28,560 nucleotides of DNA, from NCBI RefSeq assembly GCF_003334815.1, contig NZ_QOWO01000045.1; one strand, written 5' to 3'. Origin of the DNA: Escherichia coli. GTDB taxonomy: Bacteria; Pseudomonadota; Gammaproteobacteria; Enterobacterales; Enterobacteriaceae. Positions within the stretch are counted from its first letter, which is position 1, and the number at the start of each line of letters is the position of its first letter. The notes beneath the pieces were generated by a model. The model did no database searches and was not told the origin of the DNA. It saw nothing but the letters and a program-made list of their open reading frames with translations. This document shows positions 5,849 through 8,800 of this stretch, one piece after another. The translations under genes were made by a program, and so were the position numbers.

Positions 5849-8800
5849 ATGCGTAAACTTTATGCCGCCATTTTGTCCGCAGCCATTTGTCTGGCCGTAT
5901 CCGGTGCGCCTGCATGGGCATCTGAACATCAGTCCACGCTGAGCGCGGGGTATCTCCATGCCTTGACGAACGTTCCCGGCAGCGATGATCTTAACGGGAT
6001 TAACGTGAAATACCGTTATGAGTTTACGGACACACTGGGGCTGGTGACGTCATTCAGCTATGCAGGAGACAAGAATCGCCAGCTTACCCGTTACAGCGAT
6101 ACCCGCTGGCATGAAGATTCAGTGCGTAACCGCTGGTTCAGCGTGATGGCGGGGCCGTCTGTGCGCGTGAATGAATGGTTCAGCGCGTATGCGATGGAAG
6201 GCTTCCCGCCGTCACATGCCGGGACCATCACCGTGTATGAAGATTCCCGACCCGGTACGCTGAATGATTTTCTCGGTGCCATGACGGAGGATGATGCCCG
6301 TCCTGAGGCACTGCGCCGTTTTGAACTGATGGTGGAAGAGGTGGCGCGTAACGCGTCCGCGGTGGCACAGAACACGGCAGCCGCGAAGAAGTCAGCCAGC
6401 GATGCCGGCACATCAGCCCGTGAGGCGGCAACCCATGCGACTGATGCTGCAGGCTCAGCACGCGCAGCCAGCACGTCAGCCGGACAGGCCGCGTCGTCGG
6501 CTCAGTCAGCGTCTTCCAGCGCAGGAACGGCATCAACAAAGGCCACTGAAGCGGAAAAAAGTGCTGCCGCTGCAGAGTCCTCAAAAAGCGCGGCAGCCAC
6601 CAGTGCCGCTGCGGCGAAAACGTCAGAAACGAATGCGGCAGCGTCACAACAATCAGCAGCCACTTCTGCATCCACCGCGACCACGAAAGCGTCAGAAGCT
6701 GCCACCTCAGCCCGGGATGCGTCAGCTTCAAAAGAGGCGGCAAAATCATCAGAAACGAGCGCAGCCTCGAGCGCCAGCAGCGCAGCTTCCTCGGCAACGG
6801 CGACAGCAAATTCTGCGAAGGCGGCAAAAACGTCTGAGACGAACGCCAGGTCTTCTGAAACGGCAGCGGGACAGAGTGCCTCAGCTGCGGCAGGCTCAAA
6901 AACAGCGGCTGCATCATCTGCCAGTGCCGCGTCAACAAGTGCCGGGCAGGCCTCAGCCAGTGCCACCGCCGCCGGAAAGTCGGCAGAAAGTGCCGCATCG
7001 TCTGCTTCAACAGCCACAACGAAGGCTGGCGAAGCCACTGAACAGGCCAGCGCAGCAGCGAGGTCAGCTTCCGCAGCGAAGACATCCGAAACGAACGCGA
7101 AAGCGTCGGAAACCCGTGCAGAATCCTCAAAAACGGCTGCCGCATCGTCAGCCAGTTCGGCGGCGTCATCGGCATCATCGGCGTCTGCTTCAAAAGATGA
7201 GGCGACCAGACAGGCGTCAGCAGCGAAGGGCAGCGCCACGACAGCATCCACGAAGGCGACAGAGGCAGCTGGCAGTGCGACGGCGGCAGCACAGAGCAAA
7301 AGTACGGCGGAATCCGCGGCAACGCGCGCCGAGACAGCGGCAAAACGGGCAGAGGATATTGCATCCGCCGTGGCGCTTGAGGATGCGAGCACGACGAAAA
7401 AGGGGATAGTACAGCTCAGCAGTGCGACCAACAGCACGTCTGAAACGCTGGCGGCAACGCCAAAGGCAGTAAAAGCAGCCTATGACAATGCAGAGAAACG
7501 TCTGCAGAAAGACCAGAACGGCGCTGATATACCCGATAAGGGACGCTTCCTGAACAACATTAACGCGGTCAGTAAAACAGACTTTGCTGATAAGCGTGGT
7601 ATGCGTTATGTGCGGGTTAACGCTCCTGCAGGTGCAACATCTGGAAAATATTACCCTGTTGCTGTTATGCGTTCTGCTGGCTCAGTAAGCGAACTGGCAT
7701 CAAGGGGCATTATCACCACGGCAACGCGAACCGCAGGCGATCCGATGAATAACTGCGAGTTTAACGGATTTGTTATGCCTGGTGGCTGGACTGACAGGGG
7801 GCGTTATGCTTATGGAATGTTCTGGCAATATCAAAACAATGAACGAGCCATCCACTCAATAATGATGAGTAATAAGGGCGATGATTTGCGCTCTGTGTTC
7901 TATGTTGATGGCGCTGCTTTCCCTGTTTTTGCGTTTATCGAAGATGGCCTGTCAATATCCGCACCTGGTGCTGATCTCGTTGTTAATGATACGACCTATA
8001 AGTTTGGGGCAACAAATCCGGCGACTGAATGTATCGCGGCGGACGTTATCCTTGATTTTAAGAGTGGGCGTGGTTTTTATGAGTCTCATTCGTTAATCGT
8101 TAACGATAACTTGTCGTGCAAAAAACTTTTTGCCACAGACGAAATTGTAGCGCGTGGTGGTAATCAGATTCGAATGATAGGTGGGGAGTATGGTGCATTA
8201 TGGCGTAATGATGGCGCTAAAACTTACCTGCTGCTTACCAATCAAGGTGATGTTTATGGTGGCTGGAATACATTAAGACCGTTTGCTATTGATAACGCAA
8301 CCGGCGAACTGATTATTGGAACCAAACTGTCCGCAAGTCTGAACGGTAATGCATTAACAGCAACAAAGCTGCAAACGCCAAGACTGGTTTCTGGTGTTGA
8401 GTTTGATGGTTCCAAAGATATTACTTTAACCGCCGCGCATGTGGCTGCTTTTGCCAGAAGGGCAACGGATACATATGCCGATGCGGATGGTGGCGTTCCC
8501 TGGAATGCCGAATCAGGCGCTTACAATGTCACCCGCTCTGGCGACAGCTATATTCTGGTTAACTTCTATACCGGAGTCGGAAGTTGCCGGACCCTGCAGA
8601 TGAAGGCGCATTACAGAAATGGAGGTCTGTTCTACCGTTCCTCAAGAGATGGCTATGGTTTTGAGGAAGACTGGGCAGAAGTTTATACCTCGAAAAATCT
8701 TCCACCAGAAAGCTACCCAGTCGGCGCACCAATCCCGTGGCCATCAGATACCGTTCCGTCTGGCTATGCCCTGATGCAGGGGCAGGCTTTTGACAAATCT

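Follow-up and report, generated by a model that had tools for sequence, protein, structure and literature searches.

An Ala/Ser-rich heptad segment as the probable proximal coiled-coil shaft of a relic lambda-type side tail fibre in Escherichia coli

The segment described here lies within a 28,560-nucleotide stretch of Escherichia coli DNA (the window). We identify it, with a probability of roughly 90%, as the proximal α-helical coiled-coil shaft (PCoil) of a side tail fibre (Stf) of the lambda type. The identification is one that is already known for this kind of protein; it is a real but ordinary finding, and it does not change the understanding of tail fibres.

Identification of the shaft

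A single open reading frame (ORF) at 5849-9406 on the plus strand covers a lom' fragment fused in frame to stf. The fused gene and its downstream neighbour are divided as follows:

5849-6196, plus strand: lom' fragment (signal peptide, about 116 residues), seen as an ORF and annotated by PGAP as a pseudo Ail/Lom gene without its C-terminus
6197-6310, plus strand: remainder of the Stf collar, plus linker (residues about 66-102); position 6200 corresponds to codon 66 of the intact gene
6311-7381, plus strand: probable PCoil shaft of 51 heptads, assigned from the heptad listing, autocorrelation, single phase and AF2 monomer
7382-7500, plus strand: post-coil segment, recognised by megablast matches to P2-like phages and by alignment with Mu S structures
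7501-9406, plus strand: distal half of Stf, with gp34-type trimerisation, Mu S-like and collar parts and a His-rich tip for receptor binding, like that of T4 gp37
9406-9990, plus strand: tfa, tail fibre assembly chaperone, an ORF annotated as tail fiber assembly protein

The first-pass annotation, made from the letters alone, had read the low-complexity part of this gene as the shaft of Stf. This reading is borne out by homology to lambdoid stf genes, by the J'-lom'-stf-tfa synteny and by the protein itself, which aligns residue by residue with lambda Stf. Over the first 710 nt, megablast gives 86% nucleotide identity to the stf of lambda and HK630; identity to the stf of mEp332, PhiR26_1 and phage 204576 is 95-97%. 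PHROG tail-fibre families are also matched.

The Ala/Ser/Thr-rich core of the heptad stretch is at 6344-7380, where the Stf frame encodes 345 residues (A132, S81, T42, K22, E21, G11, R10, Q10, N6, D5, others 5). Ala, Ser and Thr account for 74% of these and hydrophobic residues are nearly absent; the share of Ala, Ser, Thr, Lys and Glu together is 86%, in agreement with the earlier description of some 340 such residues between the same coordinates. One of the two recurring units named in that description, AAKTSETNA, is present in three copies, whereas the other, SAAASSAS, is not found in its literal form; there are two copies of TAAASSAS and three of SAASSAS. Codon use in the shaft is nearly confined to GCN, TCN/AGY, ACN, AAR and GAR. 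Over 6001-7500 the GC content is 0.60, compared with about 0.46-0.53 in the flanking DNA, and the AT skew rises to between +0.39 and +0.47.

Beyond the coil, the megablast matches to P2-like phages are limited to query positions 1194-1301, equivalent to 7393-7500 of the window, and the stretch 7382-7500 can be aligned with two structures of Mu S, 5yvq and 8ju3. The distal half has Pfam matches to PF21446 (3e-27) and PF07484 (3.5e-11), and PDB matches to 2xgf, the T4 gp37 tip (8.5e-83), and to 8ju3. Runs of at least five consecutive Gly-X-Y triplets are absent from the ORF at 5849-9406.

Heptad periodicity and helical structure

The heptad register begins at 6311 (LRRFELM) and finishes at 7381 (ASAVALE), with 51 uninterrupted heptads between these limits. 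When the protein is compared with itself, identity lies between 0.38 and 0.46 at all lags divisible by 7, up to a lag of 119 (z 7-10, 500 shuffles), and is at or below the expectation from the same 500 shuffles at all other lags. The DNA behaves in the same way: 16 lags have z>4 relative to a codon shuffle, all of them multiples of 21 nt, and the spacings within repeat families (63, 84, 105, 147, 168, 189, 210, 231, 252 and 294 nt) are also multiples of 21 nt. The self-comparison that had been proposed as a check on internal periodicity is therefore positive, with peaks solely at multiples of 7 residues or 21 nt. What does not survive is the proposed repeat unit of 8-9 residues, the true period being a 7-residue heptad, [A/K/E]-x-x-A-x-x-S.

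Position 4 of the heptad is Ala in 78% of cases, position 1 is Ala in 59% and Lys or Glu in 22%, and position 7 is Ser in 62%. Leu, Phe, Val and Ile are restricted to the terminal heptads, where they form hydrophobic caps at both ends of the coil. Outside these ends, large hydrophobic residues are absent from the core a and d positions, and the core consists of Ala and Ser with some Lys and Glu. A core of Ala/Ser in place of Leu/Ile is atypical among coiled coils. By analogy with homologues, three chains would coil round a core of small residues, in which heptad position 4 is Ala, position 1 is mostly Ala and position 7 is Ser; at both ends the register would be fixed by canonical hydrophobic residues (Leu, Phe or Val) in positions 1 and 4. 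For this particular allele, trimerisation and the packing of the core are inferred from its homologues.

An AF2 prediction for the monomer, run with no alignment, is approximately 94% helical with a mean pLDDT of 71. The helices span residues 3-156, 167-290 and 302-411 of 413, with two fold-back loops between them; the fold-back is an artefact. PDB coverage of lambda Stf consists of residues 1-94 alone, which form the collar (9e7m, 9mgh).

These features agree with what is known of the module. Ghosh et al. (2012; PMC3368898) described PCoil as an AxxA/SxxS heptad domain, with lengths that differ by multiples of 7, and had already remarked on its atypical alanine-type core. In the same work, PfN-PCoil fragments had α-helical circular dichroism (CD) spectra, melted cooperatively and reversibly, at close to 50 °C for that of EPclA, and were trimers (CD, AUC and EM). 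In Ur-lambda Stf, the collar (residues 1-91) and linker (92-101) are followed by a proximal coiled coil (102-393) and then a hinge, and cryo-ET shows the proximal part as a rigid rod (Wang et al., 2025; PMC12617516). In an intact phage, the shaft described here would be a rigid spacer between the collar clamp at the tail tip and the receptor-binding distal half. Its length would be roughly 50-60 nm, estimated from 345-397 residues at about 0.148 nm per residue.

A segment that is three-quarters Ala, Ser and Thr, that has scarcely any hydrophobic residues, and that falls in a region (6410-7990) spanned by no model in the Pfam search, might instead be taken for a disordered low-complexity linker of the mucin or PT type, acting as a flexible tether with no rigid shaft. 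We regard this as very improbable. It gives no reason for a strict seven-residue phase maintained over 51 repeats and, as described below, in nearly all related loci, and it is at odds with the helix predicted by AF2, with the helical and trimeric PfN-PCoil fragments, and with the rigid proximal rod of Ur-lambda.

Open reading frames in the other frames

The coding of the coiled-coil shaft has a consequence for gene prediction. Three long ORFs listed in the first-pass annotation are all present at the coordinates given there, and their translations are of low complexity:

6402-7409, plus strand: ghost ORF of 335 aa, rich in P/R/Q, reading from Stf codon position 2
6228-7364, minus strand: ghost ORF of 378 aa, rich in L/P/R/W, antisense to Stf codon positions (2,3,1')
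6502-7437, minus strand: ghost ORF of 311 aa, rich in A/D/V, antisense to (3,1',2')

The suggestion that they are spurious is upheld: composition accounts for two of them, and across 73 distinct alleles not one is conserved. Of the five non-coding frames, two are nearly stop-free because T hardly ever stands at the second codon position (1.2% of shaft codons). After codon-usage-preserving shuffling, the frame of 6402-7409 remains open in 1000 of 1000 cases, and the open run of 291 codons in the frame of 6502-7437 compares with a null mean of 296.

The frame of 6228-7364 is different, in that none of 1000 codon shuffles leaves it fully open, yet it is open in this allele. The triplet NCT before a codon that begins with A is found in none of 62 NCN|A contexts, compared with 15% in the other genes of the window. 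This excess openness led to the ORF being considered as a gene in its own right, and it was ruled out by stops (between one and six each) in 62 of the 73 alleles, including the closest intact stfR. The openness seen here is attributed to duplicated units that are not independent, together with chance, codon usage alone being insufficient.

More generally, one of the antisense frames (6228-7364 or 6502-7437) might be a real overlapping gene whose openness has been selected. The shuffling result for the first of these points in that direction, as does the annotation in the lambda reference of orf206b (NP_040603.1; 20147-20767, minus strand) in the same relative frame as the second. Codon columns with synonymous variation only are also equally numerous in Stf and in the (3,1',2') antisense frame, with 128 in each. 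This last count cannot tell the two frames apart, because they share the wobble position, and the shared geometry fully accounts for the pattern. Conservation of stop codons was for this reason used as the test of the true frame in place of synonymous and non-synonymous columns. On this test, conservation across the homologous alleles, which the first-pass annotation had named, together with expression, as evidence against spuriousness, is not found: besides the stops in the frame of 6228-7364, at least one stop falls within the coil in the frame of 6502-7437 in 72 of 73 alleles, and the plus-strand frame of 6402-7409 is interrupted in 25 of 73. Moreover, the 62 contexts are not independent observations, since the repeat units are copies of each other, and the translations are of low complexity. 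When the three ghost translations and lambda orf206b were looked up as exact sequences in a collection of 15 billion proteins, none was found, a result that is uninformative in that a match needs identical ends. Knock-down of orf206b causes no plaque defect, a result shared with its neighbours stf, tfa and lom (PMC10695390). An overlapping gene is therefore hardly credible, and lambda orf206b is one more such ghost.

Length variation and recombination

Coil lengths were measured on 80 IMG/VR DNA loci related to this stf, the shortest coil having about 106 residues and the longest 444. From anchor to anchor, the lengths seen are 119, 122, 234, 325, 339 and 444 residues; the earlier proposal to compare repeat number with lambda stf gives 339 residues here against 234 in lambda, between the same anchors. 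A single heptad phase is kept in 80 of 81 loci, the exception being an allele (L057) with a 220-residue out-of-register deletion. Relative to the allele in the window, five of six indels are multiples of 7 residues (P about 3e-4), and the indels, of 42-660 nt, join distant rather than adjacent copies. Whole heptads are gained or lost by in-register unequal homologous recombination because all the heptads resemble one another, and such exchange yields fibres whose shafts have between about 15 and 63 heptads.

One pair of repeats belongs to a family designated D1:

6571-6616, plus strand: D1 copy, left partner of a 315-nt unequal crossover
6886-6931, plus strand: D1 copy, right partner of the same crossover

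A deletion in one allele (L079) and a duplication in another (L006) have common junction sites at about 6612 and 6927-6932, 315 nt apart, and look like the reciprocal products of one 315-nt unequal crossover. The expectation that the repeats are recombination-prone, and that this explains variation in fibre length, is thus confirmed, in that length changes can be traced to recombination between internal repeats. Steps of 15 heptads (105 residues, about 15.6 nm) recur, separating the classes of 234, 339 and 444 residues. A higher-order repeat of 105 residues was considered but is not supported as a period of the sequence, since autocorrelation at a lag of 105 residues (315 nt) is not above that at the remaining multiples of 7; the steps of 315 nt come from individual pairs of repeats.

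At the DNA level the repeats are weak. Tandem Repeats Finder (TRF) detects no tandem array across the segment, its sole hit being 22 nt at 7161-7182, where a 9-nt unit is present in 2.4 copies; few 45-nt windows attain 73% identity, and the internal repeat copies are 60-76% identical and dispersed. The periodicity is therefore structural, and is not that of a tandem DNA array. Variable sites number 185 at third codon positions, against 57 and 50 at first and second positions, a pattern that points to purifying selection on the protein. A hypervariable VNTR-like tandem repeat, changing by replication slippage and encoding a structurally unconstrained protein, could be imagined from the different length classes and the short direct repeats, but with dispersed and diverged copies, indels that join distant rather than neighbouring units, and a protein under purifying selection, there is next to no case for it.

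We may speculate that the length of the coiled-coil shaft is adaptive, and acts as a heptad-quantised "reach ruler" that matches the distance from tail to tip to the thickness of the host O-antigen or capsule. In-register crossing-over between internal repeats would then reset the reach, and the length classes would be selected rather than neutral. This proposal seems to us rather unlikely.

The relic gene and its prophage

The gene order is 'J, lom', stf and tfa, followed by ea47-, ea31- and ea59-like genes. The lambda att core, GCTTTTTTATACTAA, is found downstream at 15157-15171, with ybhB-bioA past it. The element is a lambda-like prophage at att-lambda, without head or tail genes.

The match to intact lom stops at about 6197. 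Relative to strain GPEC673 there is a 508-bp deletion, with TGG microhomology at the lom'-'stf junction. The collar domain PF08400 is matched over model positions 77-134 of 134, Stf residues 1-65 having been deleted; a complete PF08400 domain was clearly present ancestrally. Among the matches listed, one-piece matches of at least 99% come from the source genome only.

The truncated collar, the in-frame fusion of what is left of Stf to Lom residues 1-116 and the tail-less prophage show that this copy of stf is a relic, or fossil, and the shaft cannot serve a virion in this genome. It could nevertheless be open to capture, through recombination with an incoming lambdoid phage.

Implications for annotation, assembly and engineering

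The value of the finding is mainly practical. In annotation, the shaft yields ORFs of 300-380 codons in three wrong frames, and orf206b is still carried in the lambda reference. The stf of mEp332 is annotated as two "hypothetical proteins" because frameshifts in the coil read on far. For assembly, it is relevant that genomes have a median of four matching places, several prophages carrying the same conserved, self-similar segment. Most database proteins beginning with the N-terminal domain of Stf are "partial" fragments of 130-290 residues, many of them on short contigs; a homology listing by the N-terminal 167 residues of Stf gave fragments of 132-292 residues only, the majority of the named ones being labelled partial, and is unfit for measuring the full coil length. 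For engineering, the heptad phase, together with indels that occur naturally in register, marks where the shafts of lambda-based delivery particles could be changed in length, and shortening or lengthening at these places could leave the coiled coil unbroken.

Comparison with known systems

The closest known system is Ur-lambda Stf. Its coil occupies the same position, between the PF08400 collar and a conserved post-coil junction, and shares the heptad register, and the gene order J-lom-stf-tfa is the same. The coil in the window is longer than that of lambda Stf by 105 residues (15 heptads, about 15.6 nm). The gene described here differs from that of Ur-lambda in lacking collar residues 1-65, in being fused to lom', and in lying in a prophage with no tail genes.

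The antisense ORF at 6502-7437 resembles lambda orf206b, which also lies antisense within the Stf coil and in frame (3,1',2'). The lengths are 311 aa and 206 aa, respectively, and the limits are not conserved.

The PCoil domains of EPclA and EPclB, from EHEC prophages, are likewise Ala/Ser-rich and of low complexity, follow directly after PfN (PF08400), are built on an Ala-X-X-Ala/Ser-X-X-Ser heptad, and vary in length in sevens (PMC3368898). They are shorter, at about 100-140 residues against about 350 here, and the EPcl proteins go on into collagen Gly-X-Y and PfC, whereas the protein here goes on into gp34-, Mu S- and gp37-like modules.

A more distant comparison, purely by analogy of structure, can be made with the Braun lipoprotein Lpp-56 of E. 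coli, which has only some 56 residues and whose sequence and function are unrelated. Its three strands form a parallel coiled coil in which Ala occupies the core heptad positions, and this alanine zipper demonstrates that a core of small residues is compatible with a stable trimer.

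A heptad coiled coil in the side tail fibre

Read in the frame of the ORF at 5849-9406, the region 6344-7380 encodes 345 residues, of which 132 are Ala, 81 Ser, 42 Thr, 22 Lys and 21 Glu, and just five fall outside A/S/T/K/E/G/R/Q/N/D. This bears out the Ala/Ser/Thr-rich shaft of the side tail fibre Stf reported in the first-pass annotation. The GC content is 0.60 compared with about 0.5 in the flanks, with A greatly in excess of T.

The internal periodicity claimed for the shaft is also real, and far beyond chance. Self-identity of the protein is 0.38-0.46 at each multiple-of-7 lag up to 119 residues (z 7-10, 500 shuffles), and at or below expectation at all other lags. 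Sixteen autocorrelation lags in the DNA exceed z=4 against a codon shuffle, and every one is a multiple of 21 nt, as are most spacings within repeat families. Tandem Repeats Finder found no array in the region, and local DNA identity among repeat copies is only 60-76%, so the repeat is one of structure rather than a DNA minisatellite.

ORF residues 155-511 (6311-7381) form 51 heptads in one register. Position 1 is Ala in 59% and Lys or Glu in 22%, position 4 is Ala in 78%, and position 7 is Ser in 62%. Ordinary hydrophobic residues occupy positions 1 and 4 in the first (21 residues) and last (14 residues) heptads, and these positions therefore probably correspond to core positions a and d. The AlphaFold2 monomer model of 6290-7528 is helical except for two low-confidence fold-back loops. 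The interpretation made from sequence alone was essentially right, and a deeper description can now be given: the shaft is a heptad coiled coil with an Ala/Ser core and no stutters, and its length changes by whole heptads.

Length variation and recombination

Coil length was taken as the distance between the MVEEVA and RAEDIA anchors in loci with an Stf N-terminal domain at least 93% identical. Distances of 119, 122, 234, 325, 339 and 444 residues were found, the commonest being the 339 of the allele studied here; coils with other distal modules have about 106, 113, 211, 225, 229, 233 or 266. By a position-specific heptad score, 80 of 81 loci keep one phase from end to end. The sole exception (IMGVR_UViG_3300029719_000311) has a 220-residue deletion (31x7+3) that shifts the phase, equivalent to a stutter, and may represent either a tolerated discontinuity or a defective fibre. 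Five of the six distinct indels relative to our allele are multiples of seven residues (P about 3e-4), namely -14, -105 (at two different sites), +105 and -217.

Breakpoint mapping in two homologous loci placed a deletion at ~6613-6927 (L079) and a duplication at ~6615-6929 (L006). Two copies of the repeat D1 lie at 6571-6616 and 6886-6931, 315 nt apart, and the deletion and duplication are the reciprocal products expected of one unequal crossover between them. Two further deletions, of 42 nt (L069) and 651 nt (L037), likewise have similar short motifs (AATSA… and AASSA…) at their joints. Megablast matches to other phages stop at varied points in the coil (query 1-155, 1-227, 1-644, 1-710 and 1-849), which fits mosaic joints within it. 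These breakpoints and match ends support the earlier proposal that recombination underlies the length variation.

E. coli genomes have a median of four matching places each. Among 120 listed proteins starting with the Stf N-terminal domain, all are 132-292 aa long, most of the named ones are labelled 'partial', and many end within the coil on short contigs, a pattern suggesting that this self-similar region, present in several copies, is a routine breaking point of short-read assemblies.

Alternate-frame ORFs

The three long ORFs noted across the coil in other frames are present at precisely the positions listed:

6402-7409, + strand, frame starting at Stf codon position 2
6228-7364, - strand, antisense frame (2,3,1')
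6502-7437, - strand, antisense frame (3,1',2')

That they might be genes was rejected. The 73 distinct coil alleles compared came from 80 IMG/VR loci and reference phages. In 62 of them, the nearest intact stfR included, the 6228-7364 frame carries 1-6 stops; the 6502-7437 frame has stops in 72, and the 6402-7409 frame in 25. None is conserved, and all three are therefore ghosts, spurious as first proposed.

Codon position 2 of the coil is C in 68%, A in 19%, G in 12% and T in 1.2%. A stop in the 6402-7409 frame is possible only where this position is T, and the frame is open in 1000 of 1000 codon-usage-preserving shuffles. In the (3,1',2') frame a stop requires a Tyr codon, or T then His/Gln, and the frame stays open for 291 codons (null mean 296). 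This frame and Stf have a common wobble position, so that polymorphism is equally 'synonymous' in both (128 synonymous-only codon columns each) and substitution patterns cannot tell them apart. The (2,3,1') frame is open beyond expectation in our allele, with 0 of 1000 shuffles fully open; in the coil, none of the 62 NCN codons that stand before an A-initial codon is NCT, against 15% in the window's other genes. The excess openness is best put down to non-independent duplicated units and chance.

The hypothetical protein orf206b (NP_040603.1) is still annotated in lambda (NC_001416, 20147-20767, - strand). It lies antisense inside the Stf coil region, in the same relative frame as 6502-7437, and is a ghost ORF. 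Its CRISPRi knock-down gave no plaque defect, nor did that of the neighbouring stf, tfa and lom (PMC10695390). The stf of phage mEp332 (PV340541) is annotated as two 'hypothetical proteins', at 3306-3986 and 4670-6706 of locus L004, because after a frameshift in the coil the first ORF continues for ~40 codons in the +1 ghost frame. The shift is either a sequencing error or a genuine lambda-PaPa-like stf inactivation.

Prophage setting

The window is 100% identical to the chromosome of E. coli 52F4 from a calf (NZ_CM147848.1) and covers the right end of a defective lambda-like prophage:

prophage part, DLP12-type lysis genes essD-rrrD-rzpD-bor, then nohD
prophage part, terminase-A fragment adjoining J C-terminal fragment, lom fragment, 'phage tail protein' (stf), tfa
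4138-5779, +, N-terminal 293 codons of terminase large subunit A joined at ~5015 to C-terminal ~255 codons of tail-tip protein J
5849-9406, +, Lom-Stf fusion ORF: Lom residues 1-116 including signal peptide, in frame with Stf from residue ~66
b region, beyond tfa, ea47-, ea31- and ea59-like genes
15157-15171, +, exact lambda att core GCTTTTTTATACTAA, between b region and ybhB-bioA
beyond prophage end, host genes ybhB-bioA-bioBFCD-uvrB-moa

The att core marks attR and places the element at the classical att-lambda site. No head or tail genes are left in the prophage, and the abutting A and J fragments imply that a single deletion took them all out. Relative to strain GPEC673, whose J-lom-stfR-tfaR is intact (98.4% identity), a 508-bp deletion from lom codon ~116 to stf codon ~66, with TGG microhomology at ~6197, created the Lom-Stf fusion and kept the frame; PGAP calls lom a pseudogene and starts a 1057-aa 'phage tail protein' at a GTG. 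Lacking two thirds of its collar domain, and with no tail to join, this fibre cannot work in a virion. Experiments have shown that lambda and defective prophages swap DNA at stf-tfa (De Paepe et al., PMC3945230), and a relic stf such as this could act as a donor.

In the ea59/ea31 position is a gene pair (11942-14406, - strand) encoding a 525-aa AAA ATPase and a 296-aa HNH endonuclease. In PADLOC the ATPase matches PtuA (Septu) over its full length (E 8.8e-185) and the candidate system PDC-M01A (8e-202), and the endonuclease matches PDC-M01B (5.8e-113); the two genes resemble a Septu-like defence pair, sited in the lambda b region. The adjoining ea47-like gene (10119-11351, - strand) has no PADLOC match.

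Comparison with known side tail fibres

Lambdoid phages 204576, mEp332 and PhiR26_1 carry stf genes 95-97% identical to the DNA studied here, and HK630/lambda-type stf shows 86% identity over the first 710 nt of our sequence; the protein aligns with lambda Stf. Of PF08400, Pfam recognises the C-terminal part; it also finds gp34-type trimerisation and collar domains. The last 230 residues match the receptor-binding tip of T4 gp37 (2xgf, 8.5e-83), and internal segments match Mu tail fibre S. PDB entries stop at Stf residues 1-94 (9e7m, 9mgh), so there is no atomic structure of the coil there.

The low-complexity region following PfN was named 'PCoil' by Ghosh et al. (2012; PMC3368898), who described an Ala-X-X-Ala/Ser-X-X-Ser heptad with lengths differing by multiples of seven, and a reversible trimeric α-helical coiled coil by CD, AUC and rotary-shadowing EM. 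Wang et al. (2025; PMC12617516), who resolved the collar of Ur-lambda, attributed residues 102-393 to a trimeric proximal coiled coil and placed a hinge after it. The heptad start found independently here, at 6311, agrees with window position 6308, to which lambda residue 102 corresponds. Our description of the shaft thus reproduces published accounts of PCoil and lambda Stf, and was already known.
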